From Anaerolineae bacterium (lineage in GTDB: Bacteria > Chloroflexota > Anaerolineae > B4-G1 > DUEL01), in NCBI GenBank assembly GCA_016931695.1, contig JAFGEI010000022.1, positions 397-64,396 on the forward strand: DNA of 64,000 nt. The letters are read 5' to 3'. Every line of letters starts with the position of its first letter. Within the stretch, counting starts at the first letter, position 1. The position numbers and the translations under genes are program-made. The notes below the pieces were generated by a model, which saw nothing but the letters and a program-made list of their open reading frames with translations, made no database searches and was not told the DNA's origin. Below, in pieces: positions 1-51,011 of this stretch.

Positions 1-371
1 ATCTGGCGCTCCTGGCGCTGCGCCTCGGCAGTGGGCGCGGCAAAGGCCGGCGATTGGAGCCTGGCGACGGCCTGGGCCAGCATCTCCCGCTGGCAAGACA
101 GCTCTCCTGCAGCGCCGAAATCGCACTCCGGCAGCGCAAACTGCTGCAGCTCCCCCGCAACCCGGGCCAGGTCCTGCTCGACCCGTTCCAGCGCGGCCTG
201 CCGGGCCGTCAACGTGCTGCGCGCCGCCCCGAGCGGCCCATCGATGCGCACGCGCCAGGAGGGTCCGGCTGCCGCAGTCGAAAAGGCGCGGCCCGCCTCC
301 CCTGCCGCCGACCAGATTCCCAGCGGGTCCTCGCCGCCCGGCGGCGTGACCTCGCTCAGCAATTCGATCAC
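1..371 (-). CDS. Hypothetical protein, partial (runs off left edge), translationally coupled to the upstream C25-like peptidase
   Basis: GTG at 371-369 overlaps the TGA (370-368) of the upstream gene (GTGA). Frame is open to the window edge: VIELLSEVTPPGGEDPLGIWSAAGEAGRAFSTAAAGPSWRVRID...; absent from the ORF track because it has no stop. Confidence 0.75.
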   Translation of the reverse strand, partial: MIELLSEVTPPGGEDPLGIWSAAGEAGRAFSTAAAGPSWRVRIDGPLGAARSTLTARQAALERVEQDLARVAGELQQFALPECDFGAAGELSCQREMLAQAVARLQSPAFAAPTAEAQRQERQ

Positions 372-2353
372 GGCCTGACCACGTTGAGCAGGTCGGTCGC
401 CACGCCGGTCATTGTCTGCAGAAAGTGAGCCCGGTTGGCCTGGGCGTCCCGCACCATCTCCCGGTGCAGTTGCCACACCTGGGGGTCGCTCTCCTCGACC
501 TCGTCCGGCAGGTAGGCCTCGACGCTGCCGTCGAACTTGATGCGGGTAAAGGCGCGGAGCTTTTTCTCCCCCCCCTGCCGGGCGATGGTCTCCAGATCGG
601 GCGCGGTATAGGTGCGCACCTCCAGGGTAGCGATCTTGTCGGCCGCCTTTTGCAGTGCCTCGGACAGCTGCTGTGCGAACTGGCCCAGGGACGCGGTCAG
701 ATCGCCGAGTTGCGGGCGCATGGCGACGAAGGGATCGGCGCCGGCGCTCAGATCGACCGCTGGCGATACCCCCGTCCTGCCCATCCGCTCGCCCGCCTTG
801 GGCGGCGCAATGCGGCCCGCCTCGGGCAGCGGGGGCCGCTCCGGCGGCGCGCCGTCGCGGGCAAAGGGAATGCTGACCGCCGGGTCGCCCAGGACGACAT
901 AGCCGCGCGCGTCGTTGGTCGCGGTCCACAGGCGCACCAGTTCGCGGTCGCTGACGAATGCGTCGTCAAAGCGCAGCTCTTTCAGGCTCTCGCCGAGCTC
1001 GGCGGCCATGTCGGCGTAGCGCATGCCAAAGCTGGGATCGGTCGCCAGGCCGACCGGCTCGCCGTTCATCAGCTTGCGCAGCGCCGTCTCAAAGGCCTGG
1101 ATGTCGGGGGCGCCGCTTTCGGTGAGGAAGGAATAGCCCCAGGCCCGTTCGACGTGGCCCAGCACCGCCAGCGCGCCCCGCCGCAGCAGTTGGTTGGGCA
1201 GCGCGGCGGTAAACTCGTGCGGGGCGATCCGCGGCCGTCCCCGGCGGGCGTCGATGACGAACTGGTCGAACTGGGGCGTCCCGGCGCCGTAGCAGGCAAA
1301 GAACAAGGCGACCATGCCGAGGACGTTGCCCTGCGGGACGTCTTCGGCGGCAAAGTAATGGGCGCGCCCGATGCCGTGGCCCGGGCCGGGCCACTCCTGG
1401 CCGAGCAGCGCGCCCTGGTGGGCAAACTGCTGGGCGTGATTGAGCGGAAATTCCACCCCGTGGCTGGCAGTCATCAGCAACGCCGGCGTCCGCTGCGGGT
1501 CGCCGCCCAACAAATCGCCGAGCCGGGCGCGGGTCGCCTGGCCGGGCCCGACGTGGGCGGCGAGGCGCCACGCCCATTCAAGCGGAATCTCGCCCGTCCG
1601 CTGCTGCTGTTGCAAGTGATCGATCAGGGGCTGGATCATGTAGGTCGAGCTCAACTCGGTCGCCCGGTCGCCGGGGTTGGCGACGCCCCAAAAAGCCGCC
1701 TGGCGGTCGAGCTGCACCTGGCCGCTCTCGGCGGCGACGACGTTGGCGGCGTACTGGGCGTAGGCATCCCAATCGTCGCCGAAATCGAGCCGGCCCACGC
1801 CGCGCATCAGGTCGAGCTCGTACTGGAAGAAATAGGGAATCTCGAGCGGGCTGCCGACGAGCAGGACGTAAAAGGGCAATTGCTCGGGATCGGCCGGGCC
1901 GCGCCGGACCTCGGGGGTCTGGCGGCGGAAGAAGGCAGACTTGCGCTCGCCGGGCTGGTAGCCGGATTCGCCCTCGAACAGGCGGAACAGGCGCTCGCCG
2001 GCCTGGTCGAGCCGCCGCTGGAGTAGGGGGGCCAGGGCCTCCTTGATCGTCTCCCGCCGTCCAGGGTCCATGTCGGCGGGCAAGATCACCGCCCAGCCGG
2101 CCTGGCCGAGGTCGGCGGCATCGACGCCCTCCTTGGCCGGCTCGTCGAACATCCGCGCCCTGCGGCCGCGCTTTTCCCGCATCTCGGAGAGGTGCTCGTC
2201 ATCCGCCTCCGGCTCCCCCGCCGCCGGCTCGCCCTTGATGATGCGCGCCAACTGCTGCGGAGACATGGGCGGCAGGGCGTATTCGCCGGTCACGCCGTCG
2301 ATGCCGTTGAAATAGAGCTTGTCGCCAAACAGGTCGGCTAACTCGTCAGACAT
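368..2353 (-). CDS. C25 (gingipain)-like caspase-fold cysteine peptidase with extra C-terminal domain
   Basis: Start moved to ATG 2353 after AAGGAGGG RBS. Motifs YVLLVGSP, LLMTASHG (His), LFFACYGAG (Cys), YVVLGDPA; ~170 aa C-terminal extension. Confidence 0.75.
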   Translation of the reverse strand: MSDELADLFGDKLYFNGIDGVTGEYALPPMSPQQLARIIKGEPAAGEPEADDEHLSEMREKRGRRARMFDEPAKEGVDAADLGQAGWAVILPADMDPGRRETIKEALAPLLQRRLDQAGERLFRLFEGESGYQPGERKSAFFRRQTPEVRRGPADPEQLPFYVLLVGSPLEIPYFFQYELDLMRGVGRLDFGDDWDAYAQYAANVVAAESGQVQLDRQAAFWGVANPGDRATELSSTYMIQPLIDHLQQQQRTGEIPLEWAWRLAAHVGPGQATRARLGDLLGGDPQRTPALLMTASHGVEFPLNHAQQFAHQGALLGQEWPGPGHGIGRAHYFAAEDVPQGNVLGMVALFFACYGAGTPQFDQFVIDARRGRPRIAPHEFTAALPNQLLRRGALAVLGHVERAWGYSFLTESGAPDIQAFETALRKLMNGEPVGLATDPSFGMRYADMAAELGESLKELRFDDAFVSDRELVRLWTATNDARGYVVLGDPAVSIPFARDGAPPERPPLPEAGRIAPPKAGERMGRTGVSPAVDLSAGADPFVAMRPQLGDLTASLGQFAQQLSEALQKAADKIATLEVRTYTAPDLETIARQGGEKKLRAFTRIKFDGSVEAYLPDEVEESDPQVWQLHREMVRDAQANRAHFLQTMTGVATDLLNVVRP

Positions 2354-2381
2354 GGTTCCCTCCTTTTTACACAAATTCCAC

Positions 2382-5072
2382 TCACGCGATATGCAGGCGC
2401 ACAGCCGGATCGCCAAGGACGATGTACCCGCGGGCGTCATTGTTCGCCGTCCACATCTCGGCCAGCTCGTAGGGGTCTGGCGCCATCCCCAGGTCTGGGT
2501 CGGCGTTCTCCAACACGGAGACGAGCTCGGTCGACAGCGCGGCGTAGCGGCCGTTAAAGTACTCCATCGCCCAACCGACCGTCTGCCCTTTGAGGATGCG
2601 CTCGACAGCGCCCTGGAAATGGCTGATCTGCTCCGTCCCCCGCTGTCCCAGGAACGAGGTGCCCCAGGCCCGCTCGACGTGGCCGATGACTGCCAGCGCG
2701 CCGCCGCGGGAGAGGCTCAGCATGGCCTTGGGCAGCGCGGCGATGAAGGGAGAATCGGCGATGGTCTCGCCGCGCGCCTTGTACCGCTGCCGGTAATACT
2801 CGTCGTAGCGCGGGGTGCCCGCGCTGTAGCAGGCAAAGAAAAAGGCGATCATCCCCCCCAGGTCGAACTCTTCCCCCAAATCGCCGCCGGACAGGTAGTA
2901 GGCAGGGGGGATTTCCTGCTCGCCGTCGGGGCCCGGCCACTCCTGGCAGACCAGCGCGCCCTGGCAGGGAACCTGGCGCTGCTGCGGGTCGTCCTTGGCG
3001 AACTCGATGCCGTGGCTGGCGGTAAAGAGCAGGGCAGGGGGTTCATCTTGCAATACCTGGCACAGCGCCTGCTTGGTCGCTTGCTGCCGCAGGAGCGGCG
3101 TCAATTCCCACTCGCCGCCGTATTGCTTTTCCAGCTGCTCGTGCAGCGGTTGCACCAGGCTTTCGGTGTTCTGCCGGGTGGCCTCGTCGCTGCCGTTGAC
3201 GGTGCTGAAAAAGACCGCCCGCCGGCCCCGCTGCACCTGCCCGGTCTCGGCGGCGACGACGCTGCGGGCATAGTTGGCATAGGCCGCCCAATCGTCGCCA
3301 AAATCGATCCGGCCGACGGCGTACTGCACGTCGAGCTGGTACTGGAAATGGAAGGGGATCTCTTCCGGGCTGCCGACGAGGAGCAGGTAGTAGGGCGCGC
3401 GCTCGGGGTCTGCCGGTTGGGCCGGCTCGGCCCCGTGGCGGCCCAGGAACTCGGCGGCCGACTCTTGCGGCCGGTAGCCGTGCTTGCCCTCGTACAGCCG
3501 GTAATAGCGGCCGGCCTGCGACTCGCGCCTCTCGAGCAGCGGGGCGAGGGCCTTTTTGATCTCGGGCACCTTTTGTGGGGCGGCCGGGTCCTCGTAGGGA
3601 AAGACGATGCCCCACCCGGCCTGGGCCAGGTCCAGCGGATCGATGCCCTCCCTGACCCCGGCCTGCTTGAGCGGGTCGAGCATCCGCGACAGCCAGCCGT
3701 CCAGCAGGACGAGCAGGTCGCCCCAAGCCGCCCCGGACCGCTCGACCAGCGGGGGCCAGCGCTGCTCCAACTGGTCGAGCAGCAGACTCCACGACAAGTC
3801 GGCGGGATGGGCCGACAGGTCAGCGCGCAAGGCGGCCCACTCGGCCGGGCAGCCGCTGCTCTCCAAGGCATCGACGGCGTCGAGCAGCGGGCCCAGCCCG
3901 CGGATGCGGATGCGCTCCTGCAGCCGGGCGACGTCGTTGATGGCATTGATCCCGGCGATGGGAACGGTGCGCAGCTCGTTGAACACCGCTGCCAGCCAAC
4001 CGTGGCGCAGGCTGGCGTCCGCGCCGTAGCGCGGGTCGGCCCGGGCCTGGCGGATGCGCGCCCGGATCTCGTCGATCTTGTCCTTGGCATCCTGCTTCAA
4101 GTGTTCTTTCAGCACCCGCAGATTGTCCGGCTCCTCGTCCGGGTCGCTCAGCAAAAGCTTGAACAGGGAGTCCAGGTCGTTGTGGACCAGGCAGCGCACG
4201 ATGTCGACCACCTTGTCGGCAGTATGGCCGGCCAGCCGGCGCTCTAGCGCCGCGCGCTGATCTGGGGCCCCATAGGCACTGCCCAACAGCCCGACCAGCA
4301 CGTCGACCAGCCCGTCCATCTGTTCGCCGAGATTGCCGTGGGCAAGCAGTTGCGTGATGGCGACGACGGTCGCGTTCCGCTGGCGCTCGTTGCGACCCAA
4401 ATCCCGCGCCAGGCCCTGGTACTGCCGCTCCGGCGGCGCGTAATGATGCGGGTCGCCCAGGATGTGCTCGGCCAGTGCCTCGGCGGTCATCGGCGGCAGG
4501 CTGTAGGCACCGGTCTGGCCGTCGAGGCCGTTAAAGTAGAGCAGGCGCTTTTGGGAACCCTGTCGCTCGTCCGCTGCAGCGGGGCCATCGCCCGGCTCGC
4601 CGTCGCTTTCCGAACCGAGCAGCGCACCGACGTCGACGGCGGGCAGGCCGCTCGCGGCCGGCTCGCCGCCCAGCCTGGCCTGCACGGCCGGATGGTCGCA
4701 CAGCCGCCGCAGGGCATCCGCCGCCCCGGCATCCGCTTCGAGCTGCCGGCGGAGGTGATCCAATTTCTCCCTGTCGGGCGGCCGTTCCTGCAAAGCAGCG
4801 ATCAGCGCCTCCACTGCCGGGCCGGCCCCGACGGCGCGGAGCGCGGTCAGCCGGGGGGCCAGGTCGGCGGCCTCGGAATTGTCCATCATCCGCGGGCGCT
4901 GCTCAAAGATGGGCGGGATTTCGCTCGCCTGGCCCAAGATGCGCAGCGCGTCGTCGTAGGAAGGGTCGAGGAAAGACCCTCCGCCAGAGCCGGCCCCCAT
5001 CTCTTTGCGACCTCCCAGGTCCAGCGGGTCGCGTCCCAGGTCGTCATCGAACGGATTTCTATTCTCTGGCAT
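2382..5072 (-). CDS. C25 (gingipain)-like cysteine peptidase, paralog with N-terminal extension and helical insertion
   Basis: YYLLLVGSP, LLFTASHG, FFFACYSAG, YIVLGDPA; clearly homologous to 368..2353. Confidence 0.75.
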   Translation of the reverse strand: MPENRNPFDDDLGRDPLDLGGRKEMGAGSGGGSFLDPSYDDALRILGQASEIPPIFEQRPRMMDNSEAADLAPRLTALRAVGAGPAVEALIAALQERPPDREKLDHLRRQLEADAGAADALRRLCDHPAVQARLGGEPAASGLPAVDVGALLGSESDGEPGDGPAAADERQGSQKRLLYFNGLDGQTGAYSLPPMTAEALAEHILGDPHHYAPPERQYQGLARDLGRNERQRNATVVAITQLLAHGNLGEQMDGLVDVLVGLLGSAYGAPDQRAALERRLAGHTADKVVDIVRCLVHNDLDSLFKLLLSDPDEEPDNLRVLKEHLKQDAKDKIDEIRARIRQARADPRYGADASLRHGWLAAVFNELRTVPIAGINAINDVARLQERIRIRGLGPLLDAVDALESSGCPAEWAALRADLSAHPADLSWSLLLDQLEQRWPPLVERSGAAWGDLLVLLDGWLSRMLDPLKQAGVREGIDPLDLAQAGWGIVFPYEDPAAPQKVPEIKKALAPLLERRESQAGRYYRLYEGKHGYRPQESAAEFLGRHGAEPAQPADPERAPYYLLLVGSPEEIPFHFQYQLDVQYAVGRIDFGDDWAAYANYARSVVAAETGQVQRGRRAVFFSTVNGSDEATRQNTESLVQPLHEQLEKQYGGEWELTPLLRQQATKQALCQVLQDEPPALLFTASHGIEFAKDDPQQRQVPCQGALVCQEWPGPDGEQEIPPAYYLSGGDLGEEFDLGGMIAFFFACYSAGTPRYDEYYRQRYKARGETIADSPFIAALPKAMLSLSRGGALAVIGHVERAWGTSFLGQRGTEQISHFQGAVERILKGQTVGWAMEYFNGRYAALSTELVSVLENADPDLGMAPDPYELAEMWTANNDARGYIVLGDPAVRLHIA

Positions 5073-7248
5073 TCTTTTCCCCCCTTGACTCCTCTTCCCC
5101 TTGTCTCGCTGTCAGCCAGTCTCTCACGCGGGCGATGCGGTCGGCGTCGGAGGGCGGCGCCAGGCGCAGGTAGGTCTGGAAATCGACGCTGGCTCGTTCC
5201 TCTTTGCCCTGGCGGGCCAGGAGCCGCCCGCGGCCAAAGTAATAGCGGGCCTCGGCCGGCGCGCGGGCGATGGCGCGGTCGAGGGCCGCCAACGCCTGGT
5301 CGAAGCGGCCCAGGTCGCGCAGGGCGAGCCCCAACTGGTGGTAGGTCTCGGCCCGCGGCGCGCGGGCCAGCTCGGCCTGGTAATCGGCGGATGCCAGCTC
5401 GAACTCGCCCCGCAGGTAATGGGCCAGCCCCCGTTCGCCATAGGCGGCGGCGTAATCGGGCCGGGCGTCGACGGCCTGGCTGTAGGCCTGGAGCGCCTGC
5501 TGCAAGCTGTCGCGCGCTCCCGCCTCGTCGCCCTGGGCGCGCCGGGCGACGGCCCAGACCCGCAGCGCCTGGCCCAGGTTGAAGGCGGCGGCGACCAGTC
5601 CGGGATCGAGCGCCAGCGCCCGGCGGTAGTCGGCGATGGCGGCAGGCCGGTCCTGGCGGTGGACGGCGTGCAGGTTGGCGCGGTAAAAGTATGCCTGGGC
5701 CAGCCCCGGCGGGTCATTGTCGCCATCCCGCTCCACTGCGGCGATTGCCGCGCTCAACGCCGCCAGCGCTCGATCGTATTTCTGCTCCCAATAGTACAAC
5801 TGGCCCAGGGTAAAGAAGGCAAAATAATCGACCTGCTGCGGCAGGTCATTGTTGACAAAGAGGACAAAATCGTCCGCCGCTGCCAGCCGGCCGCGCACGC
5901 TGGCGTCAGTGGGGGCAGCGGTCGGATCGCGATAGGCGAACAGCGGCTCGGTGACGCTGAAGCAAGCGCGGAAGCGGCTGCGGTCGTACCAGCCCCAGAT
6001 GACCAGGGCAGCGCCGTAGCGGGCGGCCAGGCGGCGGACGTCGTCGTCGTCGCCGGGGCCAAAGGCGCTCTCTTTCAGCCACACCACGCGGACATCGGCC
6101 AGGCTGGCTTCCTGGACCCGCTGCTGCAGGTCGTCCCGCAGGTCGATCTCGAAAAAAGCCGCTTCGTGGCCCTGGAACTCGGGGATGAGGATGAGAACCT
6201 CGCCGGGCCGGGCGGGCTGATCTTCCAGCACGGCCGGAGGGGTGGCAAAGATGCGCTCGGCGCCTCGCTCCAGAAAGAGGATGGGGATGCTCCAGCTTTC
6301 CCCCCGGTCGAGCAGGTAGCTGCGGGCCTCGTTGGCCGCGCGGTCGATCTCGCCGTGGGTTGCCAGGCGGCGGTAAAAGTGGTAGACGAACTCGCGCGCG
6401 GTTTCGATGCCGACCTTGTCGCGCATGGCCACCACGCCGCCGGCCCCGCCGGCGATCAGCGCCGGCGCCATCCCTACCAACGCCCCCTCCTTCACCCGCG
6501 CCGCCGACTCGCAAGCAGCCAGGACGACCAGGTGCGGCGGCCTGGACAGCGTGCCCAGCCGCTGCGTCCATTCCTCCTGGGCGACGGCCTGGGCCGTCCC
6601 GTCGGCTTCTTCCAAATAGATCACCGCCCCTCCCGCGGCAGGGCGAAAGGCGCCGTGGCCCACAAAGTGCAGCACGTGCGGCCCGCCCTCCAGGGCCTGG
6701 GCAATGCGGTCGAGGGTGACCGGCGAGGGAATGCGCTCCGCGTCGACCAACCCCCGCAACGGCTGGAGCGCCCGCTGCAGCTCGGCCCACTCCAGGTCGG
6801 CGTCGAAGCGGTCCAGGCCGGTGGGGTTGCTGATGGCGGCGACGACTCGCAGCGGCCAATCGGTCTGGGGGGCGTGGGCGCGGGCGGTGGATTCGGGATG
6901 CAGGAGGCGGGAGAAGGGCGTGGCCGGCCCGGCGGTCAAGGGGACAGCGGGACCCGCTGCGGAGCGCAGCAAGCACTCCCAGCGCAGGTCGTGCAGCGCG
7001 GCAGCGGAATCGGCAACGACCAGCCGCAGCCGCGCCGGGCCGGCTCGTTGCAGCGCTGCGCCGATCTCTCCCCCCAGCACCGCCGCCGCCAGCAAACGGC
7101 CGTACTCTTTCGCTTGTGACTGGGCCGCGAGCTGGGCCAGGTCGAGGGCCAGGGGCTGCACCGCCAGGGGCTGCTCCCCGGCCACCAACAGTGCTGCCTG
7201 GAGGCGGCCATCCTGGCGGGATAGCTGGAGAACGATTTCCTGCGTCAT
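5059..7248 (-). CDS. CHAT (caspase-like) protease domain + TPR repeat protein
   Basis: LRWECL, VLHFVGHG (His), LVVLAACES (Cys), VVAM, WSIPILF; C-terminal TPRs (AYFYRAN, AIADYRRALALDP, AYGERG). Confidence 0.85.
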   Translation of the reverse strand: MTQEIVLQLSRQDGRLQAALLVAGEQPLAVQPLALDLAQLAAQSQAKEYGRLLAAAVLGGEIGAALQRAGPARLRLVVADSAAALHDLRWECLLRSAAGPAVPLTAGPATPFSRLLHPESTARAHAPQTDWPLRVVAAISNPTGLDRFDADLEWAELQRALQPLRGLVDAERIPSPVTLDRIAQALEGGPHVLHFVGHGAFRPAAGGAVIYLEEADGTAQAVAQEEWTQRLGTLSRPPHLVVLAACESAARVKEGALVGMAPALIAGGAGGVVAMRDKVGIETAREFVYHFYRRLATHGEIDRAANEARSYLLDRGESWSIPILFLERGAERIFATPPAVLEDQPARPGEVLILIPEFQGHEAAFFEIDLRDDLQQRVQEASLADVRVVWLKESAFGPGDDDDVRRLAARYGAALVIWGWYDRSRFRACFSVTEPLFAYRDPTAAPTDASVRGRLAAADDFVLFVNNDLPQQVDYFAFFTLGQLYYWEQKYDRALAALSAAIAAVERDGDNDPPGLAQAYFYRANLHAVHRQDRPAAIADYRRALALDPGLVAAAFNLGQALRVWAVARRAQGDEAGARDSLQQALQAYSQAVDARPDYAAAYGERGLAHYLRGEFELASADYQAELARAPRAETYHQLGLALRDLGRFDQALAALDRAIARAPAEARYYFGRGRLLARQGKEERASVDFQTYLRLAPPSDADRIARVRDWLTARQGEEESRGEKNARE

Positions 7249-7290
7249 TTCGCTGCGATTATTGGCCGAGACTGGGGTATTCGCAAGGTA

Positions 7291-7318
7291 AGTATAGCCG
7301 TATCCCGCGGTGCGTCAA
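7291..7318 (-). promoter_or_regulatory. Sigma70-like promoter upstream of the CHAT-TPR/C25 genes
   Basis: Minus strand TTGACG-16 nt-TATACT, about 40 nt upstream of ATG 7248. Confidence 0.55.
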
Positions 7319-7371
7319 ATTGCATTCGGGATGCTCTTCTGGGATGTAACAGAGTACAACTCCGCTCGGGC

Positions 7372-11064: not shown

Positions 11065-11070
11065 CTTCCC

Positions 11071-15117: not shown

Positions 15118-17138
15118 TTTCCCTCCCATTCTGCTCGCAACTCGGCCATAAACTGCTGCGTGCTGCCCCAAAAGACATTGATCTCGGCATCCTGAAAATA
15201 CTGCTGCAAAAAGCTCTGCACGGCAGCAGTGTCGGCCCGGCCTGCCTCGTCGAACTCGAGTTGCACGGCAACGTGCTTGAAGCGCCGCCGCTGGTCAGCC
15301 GACGCCACCAGGCCGCGCAGGATGACGCGAAACTCCCAGTCGTGCAGGCTGTAGCCGACAAAGAGCAGCGAACTGCTGGCAATCGCGCCGCGGATGAAAT
15401 GGGGCACCCGCTCCATCTCGGCCGAGACGCGCACCAAAAAGTCGAGATAGTCGTCCTCAGATAGCACCAGCGAATCGACCGCCTCGTCGCTGCCAAAGAG
15501 ATGATAGACCAGCGGCGCCTCGGGCGTGGGCACATAGTTGGGATCGTCCTCAAAGAGCGAAGGCAACCCGTCCAGCAGCCGGTTCCAGCGGCAGACCTCG
15601 CGCGCCGGTTCTTTCCCAGCCGCCGCCAGCGCCTCGAACATCAGGCTGTCAAAGTTAGTGGTCAGGTAGAGCGGGAGGTCCAGGCTCGCCAGCACGCGGT
15701 GGGCCTCGTTGGGGTCGTCGGCGACGAGGTTCGACCAACCGACCGCCCGCAGCAGTTGCGTCGCCGTCTCACAGTCGGCCTCGGGCCGCAGTTCCTCCGG
15801 CAGGCGCGCGTGGAGATAGCACCTGAGCGCGTCCACCGCCTCCCAGCGGGGGAAATCCTTGCCCTGGTTGCTGGCCAGGTACTGGGCGACGCGGGGCAGC
15901 TCGTGCGCGTCCTCAAAAGGGTACCCGTGCAGTTCAGACCAGCTGAGGGCGATTTCCCTGGGAGTTGGCAGCCAGCGTCCGTGGACCCGCGGGCCGATGA
16001 TGGGCGTGCACTTTTTCTGCTCGATCATGCGCACCAGGCCGGACCAAAAGACGCGCGGGTTCTTGCTGCCGAGGACCTGGCCGCGGGCGTCGGCCTCTGC
16101 ACCCCACAGCTGGCCGGAGCGGAGGCGCATAAAGAGCACCGGCACGGCGGCGGCAGGGCGGCCGGCGGTGAGCAGGGTGGCGCGCGCCTCGTTGGCCGCC
16201 TTGTCGACCCGGCCGTGCGCCAGCAGGCGCTGGTAAAAGACCGTGCTGAAGGTGCGGGCGGTCTCGACGGGGACAAAATCCTGCATCGCAATAACCGCCG
16301 GGACGCCGACCGAGACCAGCTTGGGAGCCAGGCCGCGGAAGGCATCCCCGGTATCGCGGCTCGCGCTCTGGCAGGCGGCGAGAAAGACGAGCCGGGGGTG
16401 GACGTCCTGCCGCGCCAGCATGCAGGCGATCTCGTCGTCGGGGACGATCGCCGCGTTGCCCGCGCCGTCCTGCAGGTAGAGCACCGCCTGCCCCCGCCGC
16501 TGGCTGAACGCGCCGTGGCCCAGGTAGTGCAGGACGTGGGCGCCCTGCCGCAGCGCCGCCTCCAACCGCTCCAGCGTCACCGGCGGCTCGAGAACGGTCA
16601 GTGACAGCTCGCCGGGGTCGATCTCGCCCAGCGCCGCCGCCAGCGCCGCCCGCTCCACGGCGACGTCGAACGGCTCCAGGTTATAGTTCGCCAGGTCGCC
16701 GGGGTTCGAGATCGCCGCCAACACCCGGATCGGCCGCTCGTCCACTGCGCCGCCCCAGGGCAGAGCGACGGGCAGGTAGCGGGAGAAAGGCGTGTGGGCG
16801 TGGGCGGCGAGCATTACCGTTTCCTCGTGCAGCAGCTCCCAGGGCAGGCCGTGCAGCTCGGCGGCGCCGAGGTCGATGCGCAGGCGGATGGCACGCTGAG
16901 GCGCCGCGCCGCGGATCTCGGCCCACGCTTGCTGCAGGACCGGGTCGGCCAGCAGGCGCTCGATCAGCTGCTGCCCGTCCGCGACGGGGTTGCCGCTGGC
17001 AGCCCAGGAGGCGACGGCGGGATCAAGGTGGCCGCGAGGAAAGGCCCGCTCGCCAGCCAGGGTAAATTCGACCGGGTAACCCTCGCCGCGCAGGGGAAAA
17101 ATGCGCACCTCTAAATCCATCAGGAATTCATCGCTCAT
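15114..17138 (-). CDS. CHAT protease domain + SIR2-like domain fusion
   Basis: CHAT: LPWELL, VLHYLGHG, LVFLAACQS, AVIAMQ. SIR2-like: TPIIGP, YLTTNFD, YHLFGS, LVLSEDDY, LLFVGYSLHDWEFR. Confidence 0.85.
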   Translation of the reverse strand: MSDEFLMDLEVRIFPLRGEGYPVEFTLAGERAFPRGHLDPAVASWAASGNPVADGQQLIERLLADPVLQQAWAEIRGAAPQRAIRLRIDLGAAELHGLPWELLHEETVMLAAHAHTPFSRYLPVALPWGGAVDERPIRVLAAISNPGDLANYNLEPFDVAVERAALAAALGEIDPGELSLTVLEPPVTLERLEAALRQGAHVLHYLGHGAFSQRRGQAVLYLQDGAGNAAIVPDDEIACMLARQDVHPRLVFLAACQSASRDTGDAFRGLAPKLVSVGVPAVIAMQDFVPVETARTFSTVFYQRLLAHGRVDKAANEARATLLTAGRPAAAVPVLFMRLRSGQLWGAEADARGQVLGSKNPRVFWSGLVRMIEQKKCTPIIGPRVHGRWLPTPREIALSWSELHGYPFEDAHELPRVAQYLASNQGKDFPRWEAVDALRCYLHARLPEELRPEADCETATQLLRAVGWSNLVADDPNEAHRVLASLDLPLYLTTNFDSLMFEALAAAGKEPAREVCRWNRLLDGLPSLFEDDPNYVPTPEAPLVYHLFGSDEAVDSLVLSEDDYLDFLVRVSAEMERVPHFIRGAIASSSLLFVGYSLHDWEFRVILRGLVASADQRRRFKHVAVQLEFDEAGRADTAAVQSFLQQYFQDAEINVFWGSTQQFMAELRAEWEGK

Positions 17139-17265
17139 CTTTTGCTCCTCTCCTCGTTCTGTATGCTGTGAGAAAAGTGCCGGGCAGCAACCTGAGTAAC
17201 TTGAAAGGTCCCATTTGCGGCTATCCGACCGTCAAGGTCTGGAAAACAGCTTTTTTTCGTAACTC

Positions 17266-17411
17266 GACAATGGCACATTTCAACATTGGATGCTCTACCG
17301 CAGTGGGAGAAGGGGAAAAGGGGGTTTCGCAGGCGGCTTCGCCGCCTGCGAAACCCCCTTTTCCCCCTTCCCCGTGCTTGGCAGAGCAATCTAATGAAAT
17401 GTGCCATTGTC
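17266..17411. repeat. MITE/REP-like long palindromic element
   Basis: Perfect 17-bp terminal IR gacaatggcacatttca / tgaaatgtgccattgtc; perfect 26-bp central stem 17312-17337 / 17341-17366 with TTC loop. Confidence 0.8.
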
Positions 17412-17445
17412 AAAGTAACCACTGTAACTGCCCCAGAATCTGGTC

Positions 17446-20400
17446 TCAATGGGATGATTCTTCCGGCACTGCAAGTTCGGGACAGGTGGGATGGTATGGC
17501 TCATCTCCAAGGTACCGGCTCCATTCTTCGCGGGTCAGGTTGCGATACAGATTTGCGCAAACCTGCGCGACCAAATCTTGGGGTTGCCACCACCAGATCC
17601 AGGCTGTGTCGTAGCTGATGCTTGCAATCCACTGGTCGTTCTGGCTGAAGGCGACATTGTCCGGGTATCCCAACACGTGTTCGATGCGAGTGACCTCCCT
17701 GCCAGAATCAACCTCCCAGACTCGCACTGTACCGTCGTAACTGGAGGAAACCAGCCACTGGCCGTCGGAACTGAAAGCCATGGCCAGCACCTGGCCATCG
17801 TGCTCCAAACGCCTGATCTCCCGCGCAGTGATTGTATCCCATATCCATATCGTGCCGGCCTCATATCCTGCCGCCACGTGCTGGCCATCTCTGCTCAACG
17901 CTACGGCTGTCAAAGGAGATGGCAAGGCAAGTTGATCCACTTTTTGCCCTGTCTCAATGTCCCAAGAGATGACTGTACCGTTATGGCTTGCCGATACAAC
18001 CCTTTCTCCATCGGACGCAAAGGCTACCGCGTTCACCTCCCAGCCGTGATCCATCCGGGCAATCTCGCGTGCAGCCGCCACCTCCCACACCAGCACGATG
18101 CCGTCGCCCCCGCCGGACACCCCCCATTCCTCATTGGGGCTGAAGGCCACGCTGTTTGCCTGCCACCCGTGTTCAATCCAGCCCACCATCCGTCTGCCAG
18201 ATGTCTCCCATACTTGAACCGTCCCGTCGCGGTTTCCAACGATCAGCCATTGCCCGTTGGGGCTGTAGGTCACAACCTCGACCTGGCTCGCCGAGCACGT
18301 GACCTGCTCTCCCACGACTTGGATGTCATCAGTTCTCGCCAGGTCCCACCACCACAGGGAACCATCGTCGCCTCCCGTGACTGCCGATTGGTTGTCTGGG
18401 TGGATCGCCAGGCTGTTTAGTCGACCCTGGTGCATCATCCGGGCTACCTCTCGCCCCTCGACCCTTCTTTCGTCCAGCATCATCGAGATGTTCCACACCC
18501 GAATCGTGGCATCCCGCCCCCCTGAGACGACCCACTGGTCATCGTGGGCAAAGGCAACAGCGGCGATCTCGCCTTCCTGTTCTATGCGGGCGACCTCCTC
18601 CCCGGTCTCCAGATCCCAAACCCGCGCCGTGCCGTCGTTGCTCGCCGTGAGGAGCCACTGACCATCGGCGCTGAGCACGGCGTCGACCACCGTGGCTTGA
18701 TGCCCGCGCAGCACGACGACCTCACGCCACGTCTCCACCTCCCATATCCTTGCTTTGAAATCATCGCTGCCAGAGATGAGCCACCGGCCGTCAGGGCTAA
18801 AAGCCAGGTAAAACACACGCCCGTTATGGAGCAAGCGGGCGACCTCTTCCCCTGTAGCGACTGACCAGACCCTGGCCGTGTTATCGTCGCTCCCCGAGAC
18901 GATCCAGCGGCCATCTGGACTAAAGACCACGTCCCGCACCCTGGCGTCGTGGGCGACCTGAAGGACCTCTTTTCCAGTGGCCGTTTCCCAGACCACGGCG
19001 GTGCCATCCTCGCTTCCCGATGCCACCCAGCGACTATTGGGACTGAATGCCACGGCCAACACGCCAACCTGATCGTGACCTGGGGGGGGCAGTTCGGTAC
19101 TGAACCCATGCTCCAGGCGGGCCACTTCCTCCCCGGCGACAATGTTCCATATCCGTACCTGGCCAGAAATGCCGATTGTCCGCTCTGTATTCCCGCGAAC
19201 GAGCTGGCCACCTCCCCAGGCCACAAATTCTCCATTGGGGCTAAAGGCAGCGTCATTTATCGAGTTTGCATCTGCCACCTGCACAATCGCTGTTCCAGTG
19301 TCTGGAGACCACACGATCGCGCCGCCAGAGCTCTCGGTCACCTCGCCGGCGCTATCCCAGGCGAGTTCACCGCTGCCCGACAGCACCCATTCCCCACCGG
19401 GACTGAGCGCCACGACATTGATCGGCTCCTCGTGCTGCACTCGGACTCGCTCTCGGCCTGTGTCCACCTCCCAAATCCTCGCCGTGCCTCCCTCGTCACC
19501 CGAAACGCCCCACGTACCGTCAGGGCTGAGAACCATCGTGTTCACATCGCTCCCAAGTTCTACGAGCACCAACGGTTGGGCGAGCCCGTCGAGCAGCCTT
19601 TGCAAGGTGATGCTGGCTTCCAGATTTGGCTCCCGTTGTATCGACTCGACAGCCAAAAGACTGGCCAGGGTCCAGGTTCCCCGATTGCGCTCCACCTCTG
19701 CCTGTGCCGCCAACCGAAGAGCTGTAGCGATACGGGTCTGCTGTCGCGCCTCGCCCCAGCCGTAGAAAGCAAATACCGCTGCCACAGCTACAATAGCCAA
19801 ACCAACTCCCAGCCCAGCTATGATCATTCTGCGCAATCGGCGTTTCCTGTTCCGTTCTTGCTCTACCTTCTGGCTCGCGGCCAGGAACTCGGTCTCGTAA
19901 GACTCTGCGATGTCAGGGTTCGCCAGTGCCCAGGCCAGTGCCTCTTCCAGCGCCTTGCCGCGGTAAAGCAGCGATTCGTTCTCTGTTCTTTTCCACTGTT
20001 GTGCAGTCTTGCGCAAAGGCGTTTCCTGCCGCGCCTCCCAGGCCTCATTCGACTCGACGATTGGGTCGATCAATCGATCGTGAGCGAGTTCGTACCACCG
20101 TGCTCCGGCTCGAACTTGTACTCGGATCAGTCGCCGTTGCTCCAGTATATCGACTGCCAGGTTGGACAGTCCTTCCGTTTCCGCCTCTCCGCGCACGACG
20201 AGCCCTTTTGTCTTCATCGGCGTGATCAGTTGCCTGGTGAACCAGCGGCGAAGCTGCCGCTCGTTCACCCCGGCCTGTTGCACGATCTCTGCCAGGGCGC
20301 CCTCGTAAAAGCCGGTCAGCGCCCGGTCGACATCGCCATACTTTTGTACATCCTCCCACAGGATGACATCCTTTTCCTCTGGCAGCCCTTCCCACAACCG

Positions 20401-21216
20401 GCTACAGACCACCTGGAGCTGCACGGGCTCCACGTACGGTCCGAGCGCCTTGGCTTCTTGTATCTCGGCTCGCCGCTGTATCTTGATCTGCCGCAGGTCA
20501 TCCACCAGCCAACTGGACACGTCGGCGGCGAACGGACAGCCACCATTTGCCGCCGGCCTTTCTACAGCTTCCAGCGCCCCCTCCAAGCCCAGCCGTTCCA
20601 TGCGGAATCGTGCTTTGAGCCGCCGGGGCAGCAGTGCGGCGTAGGGATCCAATTCGGCCACGTAATCTTGGCGCATGACCAAGACCACGCCGATCTGCGG
20701 ATGGGCATCCAGTGCCTCCACTACCTGAGCGAAAAAACCTTGCCGCTCTTGCCACCGTTCCTGGTGCGTGGTAAAAATCTCTTCAAACTGGTCAAACACC
20801 ACCAGTGTTGACTGCTTCATCAGAAAAGATCGCTCTTCCCTTTCCTGGCAGTGCATTGCCAGGAAAGAGGACAAGGTCTGTCCCAGCAGGGTTTCGGGAG
20901 CCGTATGATCTCCCGCCATCGTCATCAGCGCACTGAAGACAAAGATGTTTCCCCCTGCCTCGGTGCCGATCCAAGATGGCGCGTCGCCGCTTACCCGGGC
21001 CGTGGGGAGAATGGTAAAGCCTTCCTCTTCCAATGCCGGGATGACAACGGCGTTCAGGAGCGAAGTCTTGCCCGCGCCCGACTGGGCATAGAACAATACG
21101 ACTCGTTCCGCCAGGATGAGCGAGACCAAATCCCGCCCCTCCCGATTGCGTCCGAAAAAGTTGTGGCGATCAGCCCGTTCGTAGGGGCGAGGGCCAATGT
21201 AGGGATTGTTTTTCAT
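17446..21216 (-). CDS. nSTAND-type NTPase, TM helix, WD40 repeat protein (paralog 3)
   Basis: MKNNPYIGPRPY, YAQSGAGKTS, VVFDQFEEIF, YELAHDRL; TM MIIAGLGVGLAIVAVAAVFAFY; WD40 repeats. Confidence 0.9.
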   Translation of the reverse strand: MKNNPYIGPRPYERADRHNFFGRNREGRDLVSLILAERVVLFYAQSGAGKTSLLNAVVIPALEEEGFTILPTARVSGDAPSWIGTEAGGNIFVFSALMTMAGDHTAPETLLGQTLSSFLAMHCQEREERSFLMKQSTLVVFDQFEEIFTTHQERWQERQGFFAQVVEALDAHPQIGVVLVMRQDYVAELDPYAALLPRRLKARFRMERLGLEGALEAVERPAANGGCPFAADVSSWLVDDLRQIKIQRRAEIQEAKALGPYVEPVQLQVVCSRLWEGLPEEKDVILWEDVQKYGDVDRALTGFYEGALAEIVQQAGVNERQLRRWFTRQLITPMKTKGLVVRGEAETEGLSNLAVDILEQRRLIRVQVRAGARWYELAHDRLIDPIVESNEAWEARQETPLRKTAQQWKRTENESLLYRGKALEEALAWALANPDIAESYETEFLAASQKVEQERNRKRRLRRMIIAGLGVGLAIVAVAAVFAFYGWGEARQQTRIATALRLAAQAEVERNRGTWTLASLLAVESIQREPNLEASITLQRLLDGLAQPLVLVELGSDVNTMVLSPDGTWGVSGDEGGTARIWEVDTGRERVRVQHEEPINVVALSPGGEWVLSGSGELAWDSAGEVTESSGGAIVWSPDTGTAIVQVADANSINDAAFSPNGEFVAWGGGQLVRGNTERTIGISGQVRIWNIVAGEEVARLEHGFSTELPPPGHDQVGVLAVAFSPNSRWVASGSEDGTAVVWETATGKEVLQVAHDARVRDVVFSPDGRWIVSGSDDNTARVWSVATGEEVARLLHNGRVFYLAFSPDGRWLISGSDDFKARIWEVETWREVVVLRGHQATVVDAVLSADGQWLLTASNDGTARVWDLETGEEVARIEQEGEIAAVAFAHDDQWVVSGGRDATIRVWNISMMLDERRVEGREVARMMHQGRLNSLAIHPDNQSAVTGGDDGSLWWWDLARTDDIQVVGEQVTCSASQVEVVTYSPNGQWLIVGNRDGTVQVWETSGRRMVGWIEHGWQANSVAFSPNEEWGVSGGGDGIVLVWEVAAAREIARMDHGWEVNAVAFASDGERVVSASHNGTVISWDIETGQKVDQLALPSPLTAVALSRDGQHVAAGYEAGTIWIWDTITAREIRRLEHDGQVLAMAFSSDGQWLVSSSYDGTVRVWEVDSGREVTRIEHVLGYPDNVAFSQNDQWIASISYDTAWIWWWQPQDLVAQVCANLYRNLTREEWSRYLGDEPYHPTCPELAVPEESSH

Positions 21217-50868: not shown

Positions 50869-51011
50869 CCGCAGCGCCCTGGGAGGCCGGGCGAGGCAGT
50901 TGTCATACTCTCCCAATGCTGATATAATGGCGGCAAGAAGTGGGCAGTCGGCGTGACGCCCTCGGGTAGCTGCTGCCTGCGCCATGCTCGTTCAAAAGGA
51001 GGAATAGCGTT

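Follow-up and report, generated by a model that had tools for sequence, protein, structure and literature searches.

Peptidase cascades gated by NTPases have, as a general concept, already been published for multicellular bacteria (PMC7159879), and nSTAND1 is a named clade (PMC8195603). In the nSTAND1 counter-invader systems (Kaur, Burroughs, Iyer and Aravind, eLife 2021, PMC8195603) an nSTAND1 domain is combined with a variable C-terminal sensor, and a caspase-superfamily peptidase is placed at its N-terminus or in an adjacent gene. The locus described here is alike in all of these respects and both are preponderant in multicellular bacteria. The peptidase-cascade systems (Kaur et al., eLife 2020, PMC7159879) are alike in their thresholding by proteolytic cascades, and their EACC1-caspase pair is alike in joining a caspase-like peptidase to a small membrane-associated component and in its multicellular habit. 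In the protease-effector modules of Evans et al. (bioRxiv 10.1101/2025.11.14.688446) a sensor-linked protease is encoded next to a latent effector, which site-specific cleavage releases, and the sensors described there are often STAND NTPases, as they are here. The Apaf-1/caspase-9 apoptosome and the bacterial Apaf-1-like STANDs (PMC12803255) likewise have a STAND NTPase, WD40 propellers and a caspase-fold protease, which in some of the bacterial proteins is fused N-terminally.

Three further groups resemble single proteins of the locus. The gingipains Kgp and RgpB (MEROPS C25; 6i9a, 4rbm, 1cvr) have the two-subdomain clan CD fold and His-Cys dyad of our protein H, Thoeris ThsA and the defence SIR2 NADases are related to the SIR2_2 match of protein C, and the Type III-E Craspase protein TPR-CHAT (Csx29) and separase resemble protein F in joining a clan CD CHAT-type protease to TPR.

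Organization of the gene cluster

We analysed a stretch of 64,000 nucleotides, here called the window. The observation of a real, conserved and unnamed gene cluster at its left end was confirmed. The cluster comprises eight to nine co-oriented genes on the minus strand, named A, C, D, E, F, G, H and I (Table 1): three nSTAND1-TM-WD40 receptors (A, D and E), a CHAT-SIR2-like protein (C), a CHAT-TPR protein (F), the gingipain-fold proteins G and H, and I. It extends past the left edge of the window, as gene I is cut by the window start. The contig continues for 396 bp on that side, where the other 122 codons of I are located, giving a full frame of 245 aa. This is the gene that a preliminary description of the same DNA had listed as a coupled ORF, and it is indeed translationally coupled to H, its GTG overlapping the H TGA (GTGA). 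The overlapping stop and start codons reported there were found at C/D (GTGA), F/G (14 nt) and H/I (GTGA). The GC3 values of the cluster genes are of the coding type (0.68-0.88), with 0.68 for A compared to 0.81-0.88 for the others.

Gene A is set apart from the other cluster genes by a repeat element. A BLASTN search of the genome with positions 17139-17445 gave 87 matches of at least 100 bp on 35 contigs; of the 190 matches of at least 40 bp, 134 were located at most 150 bp from a contig end. A 104-aa ORF at 17135-17449 overlies this element, has no Pfam or PADLOC match and was rejected as a gene.

Table 1. Positions of the cluster genes and of the repeat element in the window
Feature	Position	Strand	Description
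I	1-371	-	first 123 codons in window; GTG start overlaps H TGA (GTGA)
H	368-2356	-	conserved N-terminal motif, gingipain-fold protease, disordered linker, ~115-aa C-terminal tail domain; 662 aa
G	2382-5072	-	helical N-terminal region of ~455 aa and gingipain-fold cysteine protease domain, tail-less; 896 aa
F	5059-7248	-	CHAT protease with C-terminal TPR repeats; 729 aa; occasional accessory
E	7372-11064	-	nSTAND1-TM-WD40 receptor; 1230 aa
D	11071-15117	-	nSTAND1-TM-WD40 receptor; GTG start overlaps C stop (GTGA)
C	15114-17138	-	CHAT protease fused to SIR2_2-like domain; 674 aa
Palindromic repeat element	17260-17414	.	~155 bp, MITE/REP-like, inside the A-C spacer; long perfect hairpin
A	17446-21216	-	nSTAND1 NTPase, one TM segment, WD40 propellers; 1256 aa; extra receptor copy

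Receptors

The three STAND-TM-WD40 receptors of the preliminary description were all recovered. Against a Pfam cutoff of 27.1 bits for nSTAND1 we obtained 125.3 bits for A, 133 bits for D and 139.5 bits for E, and the WD40 matches had E-values of 8.2e-100, 1.3e-51 and 3e-121, respectively. In A the Walker A motif reads GAGKTS and the Walker B motif VVFDQFEE. In each receptor the NTPase and the WD40 part are separated by a single strong hydrophobic segment (KD19 2.2-2.65). It peaks at 2.65 at residue 464 in A, where RNRKRRLRR directly precedes it, at 2.52 in D and at 2.19 at residue 459 in E. A TM segment occupies the same place in 25 of 27 H-adjoining homologues, always preceded by a basic cluster. 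Judged from sequence, the receptors are nSTAND1 ATPases held to the membrane by one helix, and their WD40 sensors are predicted to be extracellular. CHASE2, an extracytoplasmic sensor domain, stands in one related locus (L079) at the receptor position that WD40 takes here.

The NTPases of A, D and E are 63-70% identical, whereas the sensors share only ~33%; for D and A the rates are 70% for the NTPase and only 33.5% for the part behind the TM segment. In the NTPase tree A and D are sisters (SH-aLRT 99), all three receptors form one clade (SH-aLRT 96) and the phyla are intermixed. By phylogeny, the extra receptors are in-paralogues, that is lineage-specific duplicates with diverged sensors, and the system would therefore respond to several inputs. 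The C-terminal sensors also vary between loci, with divergent WD40 in the window and CHASE2 or FGE-sulfatase in Nostoc relatives.

Proteases

Both CHAT proteases announced in the preliminary description are present with readable dyad motifs, GHG and AC(Q/E)S. In Pfam searches the CHAT domain scored 106.2 bits in C (residues 54-358) and 93.8 bits in F (residues 48-314; motifs GHG and ACES), the latter accompanied by TPR_2 (E 5.2e-18). Orthologues of C occur in five relatives at 56-66% identity, and the CHAT His and Cys are retained in 23 of 23 orthologues. The SIR2-like domain of C was correctly assigned to its family (SIR2_2, 81.2 bits, residues 490-647) but has Phe in place of the catalytic His of ThsA. 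It aligns with residues 92-222 of ThsA (6lhx), Asn112 included; in its motif YHLFG, Phe548 is aligned with His152, and Phe or Tyr is found at this site in 23 of 23 orthologues. The Asn is retained in only ~15 of the 23. Thus the domain is probably not a canonical NADase, and an adaptor or nucleotide-binding module would be likelier.

The label C25-like for G and H holds by fold and fails by the Pfam threshold: G reaches 16.7-19.7 bits compared to a C25 cutoff of 23, and H has no match. The two are paralogues (46% identity over 452 aa, E 2e-107). G carries the motifs SHG and FACY, and all 33 aligned relatives of H retain its His299 and Cys355. For the AF2 model of H (pLDDT 84.3, pTM 0.77) the best Foldseek match was gingipain K (6i9a; E 4.8e-7, TM 0.49 on the target). 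Gingipains K and R ranged from E 4.8e-7 to 3.4e-6 and were followed by separase and Csx29 (E 7e-5 to 1e-3). No Pfam, NCBIfam or PADLOC family was found for H. Of the best 80 of 570 loci, 20 have a second, G-type protease ORF upstream of H.

Protein I and the tail module

The AF2 model of I (pLDDT 88.6, pTM 0.85) is a helical bundle with a C-terminal hydrophobic helical hairpin. There was no fold match in the PDB (Foldseek best E 0.49, VIA wide best Z 4.9) and no Pfam match even at E ≤ 1. One homologous module is common to the C-terminal tail of H, a small protein J and the C-terminal half of I; hhalign aligned the tail/J profile with the I profile over 57 columns (94% probability, E 1.2e-7). 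Within the best 80 of 570 loci, I is found downstream of a tailed H in 50 of 60 cases and of a tail-less H in 1 of 11.

A model of the H+I complex reached an ipSAE of 0.62 (runs 0.64, 0.62 and 0.58), compared to 0.00 for the best control. At least 75% of the contacts were common to the runs and the partner pLDDT was at least 75. The interface joins residues 553-660 of H with residues 125-224 of I, so the tail of H is predicted by the model to dock on the homologous module of I. When the score was calibrated, 58 of 80 solved complexes and 2 of 110 mismatched pairs attained the mark of 0.62; this calibration applies only roughly to a prediction from custom alignments.

Conservation across genomes

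The core cassette has the order CHAT-SIR2, nSTAND1-TM-WD40, (G), H, I, (J) and was found in Chloroflexota, Acidobacteriota, Desulfobacteria, Actinomycetota and myxobacteria. The same succession of CHAT-SIR2, nSTAND1-WD40, H and I is seen in three order-level relatives, and in Nostoc a tail-less H is located directly upstream of a fused CHAT-nSTAND1-sensor gene. For the counts we kept the best 80 of 570 confirmed loci, of which 34 had at least 6 kb on both flanks. Among these 34 we found CHAT in 19, nSTAND1 in 19, both in 18 and CHAT-SIR2 in 13, with close kin each counted separately and with single-sequence phmmer searches (E ≤ 1e-4) that other protease or NTPase families would escape. CHAT and nSTAND1 thus co-occur by the C25-like gene in a conserved manner, and the components form a recurrent unit and not a chance neighbourhood. 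CHAT-nSTAND1 fusions adjoin H in 5 of the 34 well-flanked loci (from the best 80 of 570); Pfam confirmed them in L079 (CHASE2 sensor), L080 and L088 (both WD40), L084 (FGE-sulfatase) and L052. In these comparisons a CHAT protease appears always to be encoded either beside the nSTAND1 receptors or fused to their N-terminus.

H and I co-occur in the same 8 of 41 related genomes and are absent from all 24 genomes of the window's own family. A full-length CHAT-SIR2 was present in 6 of the 8 genomes with H and I, compared to none of the 33 others.

The preliminary description had not recognised the full combination of genes as a named system. A PADLOC search matched no named defence system, and G, H, I and J are without a PADLOC, Pfam or NCBIfam model. 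By these gene orders the full combination is an expansion of the smaller core cassette. CHAT-TPR adjoins H in only 2 of the 34 well-flanked loci (drawn from the best 80 of 570; the one in L088 was confirmed by Pfam) and appears as an occasional add-on to the core.

Proposed function and alternative explanations

The cluster is probably a regulated cell-death or immune signalling system. We consider the chances somewhat better than even that the region represents an expanded version of a conserved, unnamed system, a STAND-gated protease cascade of the conflict or regulated cell death kind, which is typical of filamentous and multicellular bacteria. We infer an activation order from receptor to CHAT-SIR2, zymogens and effector. 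A sensor would bind its ligand, probably outside the cytoplasmic membrane, and cause NTP-dependent oligomerisation of the receptor, which would activate the CHAT protease by proximity. CHAT would then process G and H, which share a conserved N-terminal motif that may serve as pro-segment or docking segment. H would be bound to I through a pseudo-homotypic contact of its tail until a cut, either within I or in the disordered linker of H, released I, and J may act as a domain-only competitor. The hydrophobic helical hairpin of freed I may act on the membrane. The hydrophobicity of this hairpin is only moderate (median KD15 1.8, with 29 of 52 above 1.8) and K/R residues interrupt it; a membrane activity of I is therefore a guess.

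A pathway of development or envelope surveillance in filamentous bacteria, unrelated to immunity, is unlikely but the strongest of the alternatives. The extracellular propellers would read an outside signal (neighbour-cell state, wall fragments or nutrients), and limited proteolysis would relay it to remodelling (septation, differentiation or filament breakage), much like HetF, a CHAT protease acting in cyanobacterial cell division and heterocyst formation. The CHAT domain of C resembles HetF (NCBIfam NF045509, E 2e-23) with 82.7 bits, far under the cutoff of 1200. The predicted extracellular position of the sensors and the CHASE2 domain of L079 fit such a pathway, as do the neighbours at other loci: two-component genes adjoin H-I in L060 and L076, and L091 and L101 have Ser/Thr kinase-TPR genes in the vicinity. 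Three Anaerolineae loci (L030, L034 and L037) carry (G-)H-I(-J) in one syntenic housekeeping site, from isoamylase/NusA to aromatic amino-acid genes, and in 14 of the 34 well-flanked loci (best 80 of 570) H-I(-J) occurs with neither CHAT nor nSTAND1 within 10 kb. The module can therefore work without a receptor and need not be immune. The remaining window holds housekeeping genes with no defence island and no mobile genes, which argues against a defence reading, and the WD40 repeats lack the high-identity DNA tandem repeats of hypervariable receptors. Against a developmental pathway stand the patchy spread (8 of 41 relatives, 0 of 24 in the window's own family), odd for a core developmental role, the mixing of phyla in the NTPase tree and the lineage-specific duplication of receptors with diverging sensors. 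The sensor is moreover swapped among WD40, CHASE2 and FGE-sulfatase, and the last is treated as an invader-binding domain in PMC8195603.

Somewhat less probable again is that A, C+D+E, F and G-H-I are independent systems lying side by side with no connecting cascade. The loci with H-I(-J) alone and the rarity of CHAT-TPR next to H are in line with this, and so are the 123 nt gap between E and F and the position of A, cut off by the inserted repeat element and different in GC3. We found no adaptor common to the receptor or CHAT and to H, which argues against a cascade. On the other hand, different phyla show the same gene order of CHAT-SIR2, receptor, (G), H and I, full-length CHAT-SIR2 was limited, within the 41 related genomes, to those with H and I, stop/start overlaps link C-D, F-G and H-I, and the Nostoc H lies directly upstream of the fused CHAT-nSTAND1 gene. 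It is very improbable that G and H are exported as digestive or virulence proteases of the gingipain type, with neighbours for export or maturation: Kgp and RgpB are the best structural matches and a UniRef title calls one relative a 'C25 family cysteine peptidase', but the identity to gingipains is only 12-13%, neither protein reaches the Pfam C25 cutoff, an N-terminal hydrophobic signal sequence is missing from G, H and I, no secretion genes lie near the cluster, and the partners are cytoplasmic-type CHAT and STAND ATPase modules.

Comparison with described systems

Read as a STAND-gated protease cascade, the cluster differs from each of its closest counterparts. Compared to the gingipains, G and H are predicted to be cytoplasmic (no signal peptide) and have no Ig-like and haemagglutinin domains, and they carry a new N-terminal motif and tail. 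Unlike Thoeris, the window system has no TIR (ThsB) gene and no SLOG/STALD domain. The domain order of F is CHAT then TPR, unlike that of TPR-CHAT (Csx29), and the window contains no CRISPR-Cas genes.

Apaf-1 is an AP-ATPase (PMC12803255), whereas the receptors here belong to nSTAND1, have no CARD and are accompanied by a gingipain-like downstream protease. Their TM helix lies between NTPase and propellers, unlike in Apaf-1, and the sensor is therefore predicted to be extracytoplasmic. The ten effector families named by Evans et al. (MBL, alpha/beta-hydrolase, Pepco, EACC1, PCaspase, bGSDM, CATASP, MPE, CalpT and Csx30; 10.1101/2025.11.14.688446) include none that is I-like, and the window cluster has two protease tiers, unlike the modules described there. 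The cluster is also none of the eight systems in Table 1 of PMC7159879. EACC1 has a single TM and is encoded 5' of its caspase (PMC7159879), whereas the 245 aa of I are modelled as a helical bundle that ends in a hairpin.

The passages of PMC8195603 on these systems mention no gingipain-fold partner like H or G, no I, J or tail module, no CHAT-SIR2 fusion and no TM-WD40 sensor, though its supplementary neighbourhood tables may list such loci. The Nostoc locus L084 has exactly the caspase-nSTAND1-FGS architecture of PMC8195603. The adaptor logic also differs, with EAD or Death-like domains in the systems of PMC8195603 and a new module here.

Organisation of the locus

All credible genes in positions 1-21216 lie on the minus strand and show coding-type GC3 values. 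Domain, motif and fold evidence on genes A and C-H bears out the gene inventory of the preliminary description, which had listed STAND, CHAT, SIR2-like and C25-like genes and a coupled ORF. Three of the junctions overlap, C/D and H/I with the shared sequence GTGA and F/G by 14 nt; the non-overlapping gaps measure 6 nt (D/E), 25 nt (G/H) and 123 nt (E/F). The window has a G+C content of 0.62-0.73 and starts 396 bp from the left end of the 64,494-bp contig. An FGGY sugar kinase gene is located upstream of the cluster and the other 43 kb of the window hold housekeeping genes (PLP synthase, MacB-type ABC exporter, Fur, ferritin, SurE, UvrC, GlyRS, ComEA-like). For 368-7248 no matching RNA data set was listed, and two metatranscriptome runs of the same study contained next to none of its sequence words.

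Coordinates and strands of the genes in the cluster
Feature	Position	Strand	Description
A	17446-21216	minus	nSTAND1-TM-WD40 receptor; first in the direction of transcription
A-C spacer			307 bp
C	15114-17138	minus	CHAT-SIR2-like protein
D	11071-15117	minus	nSTAND1-TM-WD40 receptor
E	7372-11064	minus	nSTAND1-TM-WD40 receptor
F	5059-7248	minus	CHAT-TPR protein
G	2382-5072	minus	gingipain-fold protease, paralogue of H
H	368-2356	minus	gingipain-fold protease with C-terminal tail
I	start 371	minus	small protein coupled to H; extends beyond the window edge, complete frame of 245 codons stops 29 nt short of the contig end

The spacer between A and C contains a palindromic repeat element of ~155 bp (17260-17414) with a long perfect hairpin (core 17312-17366). 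Copies with 89-98% identity are spread over the genome: hits of 100 bp or longer number 87, on 35 contigs. Most of these hits are at contig ends and thus the element probably breaks the assembly. A 104-aa ORF (17135-17449) was considered as a coupled gene between A and C and rejected, as it overlies this repeat and belongs to no family. The GC3 of A is 0.68 compared to 0.81-0.88 in the other eight genes. Within the cluster, G+C content is lowest between 16 and 22 kb. Even so, A groups as sister to D in the NTPase tree.

Further along the window, 41781-50985 has a strongly negative AT skew (−0.22 to −0.27) at a G+C content of 0.70-0.73. A simple ORF caller reported several minus-strand ORFs there whose GC1 (0.83-0.92) exceeds their GC3; these look like ORFs called in the wrong frame, around a long gene on the plus strand for a membrane glycosyltransferase-like protein (44687-48124).

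Receptors

The receptors A, D and E matched nSTAND1 (PF20703) with 125.3, 133 and 139.5 bits, respectively, against a cutoff of 27.1, and the matches span profile positions 1-376 of 379. The Walker A motif has the form GxxGxGK[ST] and Walker B the form hhhhD; both are intact in all three proteins (SGAGKTS and VVFDQFEE or IVDQFEE). WD40 propellers follow the NTPase, and each receptor has one strongly hydrophobic segment of 19-23 residues at about residue 460-490, with a cluster of Arg and Lys before it. Under the positive-inside rule, this cluster predicts a cytoplasmic ATPase and propellers on the outside. A TM segment between NTPase and WD40 was found in 25 of 27 homologues adjoining H.

The NTPase modules of A, D and E share 63-70% identity and the parts after the TM segment only ~33%. 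A quick IQ-TREE search with 30 NTPase modules placed the three in one clade (SH-aLRT 96; A+D 99), and a receptor duplication occurred independently at another locus in this tree. No high-identity tandem repeats, a sign of concerted evolution, were found in the WD40 DNA of the receptors. In PADLOC-DB 2.0.0 the only match of A, D and E was to HEAT-ARM_XIII, at the level of the propeller.

CHAT proteins and the SIR2-like domain

C and F exceed the CHAT cutoff (PF12770, clan CD) of 24 bits, with 106.2 and 93.8 bits, and both carry the GHG and AC(Q/E)S dyad motifs. The His-Cys dyad is kept in all 23 CHAT-SIR2 orthologues. In F the CHAT domain is followed by TPR repeats, in C it is joined to a SIR2_2-like domain which scores 81.2 bits (cutoff 24.5) and which the PADLOC ThsA models match with E 8e-13. 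We take His152, in the xHG motif, and Asn112 to be the catalytic residues of ThsA (numbering checked on the alignment). In the HMMER alignment to the ThsA structure 6lhx, Asn495 of C lies at the Asn112 site and Phe548 at the His152 site. Across the 23 orthologues the His152 site is Phe or Tyr in every case, a His stands two residues before it in 20, and Asn occupies the Asn112 site in about 15. By sequence, C has a SIR2_2 match that lacks the canonical ThsA-type catalytic His, and its SIR2-like domain is non-canonical.

Gingipain-fold proteases

G and H are paralogues that share 46% identity across 452 aa. No model in Pfam, NCBIfam or PADLOC accepts either protein: against the Pfam C25 (PF01364) threshold of 23 bits, the score of G is 16.7 (19.7 when only the domain is counted), and H did not match C25 even at E ≤ 1. 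Some relatives do pass the threshold (27.8, 26.5, 36.5, 39.1 and 40.2 bits). The AlphaFold model of H (pLDDT 84.3, pTM 0.77) has a gingipain fold, with Foldseek matches to 6i9a (E 4.8e-7), 4rbm (7.9e-7) and 1cvr (3.4e-6) and TM scores of 0.48-0.50 on the target. The gingipains Kgp and RgpB are closest, and separase and the CHAT protease Csx29 come next. His299 and Cys355 of H are invariant in 33 of 33 aligned relatives. The label C25-like, which both genes had been given, is therefore right by fold and fails by the curated Pfam threshold. Relatives of H are numerous (more than 3,355 at E ≤ 0.001 among 8,000 scored candidates) and all 120 of those listed are annotated as hypothetical. The N-terminal region of G gave no usable lead in the ESM Atlas.

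The small protein I and the shared tail module

H ends in a domain of ~115 aa (the tail) which is homologous to J, a small protein (~130 aa) in relatives that consists of this domain alone, and to the C-terminal half of I. Tail and J form a well-conserved family with a mean column identity of 44%, and their profile matches that of the C-terminal half of I over 57 columns (hhalign probability 94%, E 1.2e-7). An exhaustive profile search with this shared module returned 819 cluster representatives at E ≤ 1e-3, of which 406 reach ≤ 1e-10 and 10 reach ≤ 1e-30, and in the matched proteins the module is at the C-terminus. We also looked for fused forms of the domain with a word-indexed search for longer proteins; it gave six, all of them H-type. 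Among the 150 tail/J proteins listed, 28 were scanned and proved to be C25-type fragments, proteins with unannotated N-terminal extensions and one foreign architecture. The latter is a 2,675-aa Trypsin_2-nSTAND1-WD40 protein (P0182) with four partial tail/J matches between the NTPase and the propellers, and is a further tie of the module to nSTAND1 receptors.

The model of I is confident (pLDDT 88.6, pTM 0.85) and mostly helical: six helices and short strands make up a helical bundle, a small sheet and a helical hairpin at the C-terminus. Searches with I found nothing at E ≤ 0.001 among solved structures with Foldseek PDB (best E 0.49), no outlier with VIA wide (best Z 4.9), no PADLOC match, no Pfam family at E ≤ 1 and no usable lead in the ESM Atlas (best feature score 0.83). 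A known pore former was considered and rejected, as ClyA and SmhA appear only at E 1-3 in the Foldseek PDB search. There are at least 36 homologues of I, all hypothetical and without a Pfam domain. In 51 of 52 homologues the most hydrophobic stretch is within the last 75 residues, though it is moderately hydrophobic only.

For the complex of full-length H and I we obtained an ipSAE of 0.62 (runs 0.64, 0.62 and 0.58), compared to 0.00 for the best of three controls. This passes the mark of the prediction tool, which in its calibration 58 of 80 solved complexes attained, as did 2 of 110 mismatched pairs; the calibration holds only roughly here, as custom alignments went into the H-I prediction. 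The runs share at least 75% of contacts and the partner pLDDT is at least 75. The predicted interface is confined to H 553-660 and I 125-224, that is, the tail docks on the homologous part of I, hairpin included.

When 24 J/tail sequences were compared with this genome by tblastn to find J as a gene of its own, the tail of H was the sole match. As the contig ends so soon after I, J may be unassembled. In one related genome, G036:C104:21449-22424 contains two short fragments (57-63% identity) whose similarity to I is limited to its C-terminal hairpin; both have an internal stop codon. They lie downstream of an intact I gene, near a PIN-domain ORF, and may be decayed copies.

Conservation of the cassette

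The cassette is real, conserved and widespread. A scan of one genome per species for H loci gave at least 597 pattern matches, at least 570 of which were confirmed; according to the record labels, these at least 570 loci in species-representative genomes come from at least seven phyla. We kept the best 80 loci and searched every ORF in them with the domains of the window (phmmer, E ≤ 1e-4). By record label these 80 are mostly from Chloroflexota, with others from Nostoc, Fischerella, myxobacteria, Acidobacteriota, Desulfobacteria, a member of Egibacteraceae, a member of Latescibacterota and Candidatus Vecturithrix.

H carries the tail in 68 of the best 80 loci, and a second, G-type protease ORF is present in 20. 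I was found in 51 of the 71 loci with at least 1 kb downstream. This splits into 50 of 60 for tailed H and 1 of 11 for tail-less H, which is independent support for the link between the H tail and I. Among the 68 loci with 1.8 kb or more downstream, 22 contain J. For the 34 loci flanked by 6 kb or more on each side we detected CHAT in 19 and nSTAND1 in 19, both in 18 and neither in 14; CHAT-SIR2 proteins occurred in 13 of these loci, fused CHAT-nSTAND1 proteins in five and CHAT-TPR in two. The genes recur in the order CHAT-SIR2, nSTAND1-TM-WD40, (G), H, I, (J), which Pfam confirmed in three order-level relatives.

Across 41 related genomes, H and I are present in the same eight. Full-length CHAT-SIR2 accompanies them in six of the eight and occurs in none of the other 33. 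The window's own family (24 genomes) is without H, I or full-length CHAT-SIR2. In Nostoc a tail-less H (36-39 bits, Pfam C25) directly precedes one protein that fuses CHAT, nSTAND1 and a sensor, and the sensor of these fusions varies between CHASE2, WD40 and FGE-sulfatase.

Some loci have unusual arrangements. At L066:7775-13702 (a low-G+C member of Anaerolineales) H belongs to a protein of 1,418 aa that has a long extension at its N-terminus, the gene order is H, J, I instead of H, I, J, and a large Ser/Thr kinase-AAA_16-GAF-PAS-histidine kinase gene follows downstream. At L017:3767-6661 and L021:6037-8943, both from one genus, a protein of ~965 aa with an M23 peptidase and repeated SH3_3 domains comes after H-I-J.

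Interpretation

The best-supported view is that of a STAND-gated, two-tier caspase-fold protease system whose last protease docks on a small effector or adaptor protein. It draws on the conserved neighbourhood, the fusions, the intact dyads, the shared module, the predicted docking and the variable sensor. Signalling would run from the receptors through a CHAT protein to the gingipain-fold protease, with putative cleavage events along the way; I may act on the membrane, J may serve as a decoy and the sensor presumably lies outside.

We further infer that such a system could have an immune or death outcome. The patchy distribution of the cassette, an NTPase tree that mixes phyla, and duplicated receptors with diverging sensors are all consistent with a role in immunity, but we found no defence neighbours of the cluster in the window and the H-I(-J) module is frequently found by itself. 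Three Anaerolineae loci have it in one and the same housekeeping position, with isoamylase/NusA on one side and aromatic amino-acid genes on the other. The FGE-sulfatase sensor again points towards immunity, as it is known from predicted invader-binding receptors (Kaur et al., PMC8195603).

The two-tier protease system could also be taken further, as a bacterial counterpart of extrinsic, death-receptor apoptosis. Single-pass membrane STAND receptors would then detect outside ligands through exchangeable ectodomains (WD40, CHASE2, FGE-sulfatase), form oligomers at the cytoplasmic face and trigger a cascade from CHAT to gingipain-like protease. The executioner protease would be wired to its target by a homotypic adaptor module not described before, common to the protease tail, a putatively membrane-active, new-fold effector (I) and a domain-only candidate decoy (J). 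This module would be a functional analogue of CARD/DED and of CARD-only inhibitors, unrelated to them in fold. We regard this death-receptor reading as rather unlikely.

Comparison with known systems

The preliminary description did not recognise the full combination of genes as a named system, and in our comparisons the cluster does not belong to Avs, Thoeris, gasdermin systems or Craspase. PADLOC-DB 2.0.0 has nothing for G, H, I and J, which sets the cassette apart from Avs and the other systems listed there. Thoeris would include a ThsB-type TIR domain, which is absent from all nine genes and the rest of the window. In place of the beta-rich gasdermin fold, I has a mostly helical model and matches neither PADLOC nor Pfam. 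In the EACC1-caspase two-gene system a single-TM EACC1 protein is encoded 5' of the caspase-domain protein. The gene of I sits on the 3' side of the protease gene and the predicted architecture of I differs; I has no family at E ≤ 1 in a Pfam copy that may lack an EACC1 model. Type III-E Craspase combines the TPR-CHAT protein Csx29 with gRAMP/Cas7-11, but the called genes of the window include no Cas gene and the domain order of F, CHAT then TPR, is the reverse.

Kaur et al. (PMC7159879, PMC8195603) predicted conflict systems in multicellular bacteria that combine NTPases with peptidase cascades, and protease-effector defence modules were tested by Evans et al. (bioRxiv 10.1101/2025.11.14.688446). 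The logic of the cassette belongs with both, and the cassette is none of the eight systems in Table 1 of Kaur 2020 (PMC7159879). In the portions of the literature available we found no prior description of the H/G family, I, J or the shared module, nor of the CHAT-SIR2 and TM-WD40 receptor pair; supplementary tables may list such neighbourhoods and loci.

Judging from sequences and models, the cassette would add several new parts, with a hypothetical adaptor role, to a known NTPase-plus-peptidase-cascade kind of system. It carries three gene families without a Pfam, NCBIfam or PADLOC model, tied by a shared docking module whose binding the complex model supports. If confirmed, this would provide a testable bacterial analogue of adaptor-mediated caspase recruitment together with a new effector fold, and would inform a long-standing question, namely how closely the apoptosis-like signalling of multicellular bacteria resembles the eukaryotic kind. 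Immunity by STAND proteins plus proteases is under active study. To our knowledge, the characterised systems of this kind detect phage proteins inside the cytoplasm and rely on a single protease. Compared to these, the new elements of the cassette are the predicted outward-facing sensor and the second, gingipain-fold protease tier.
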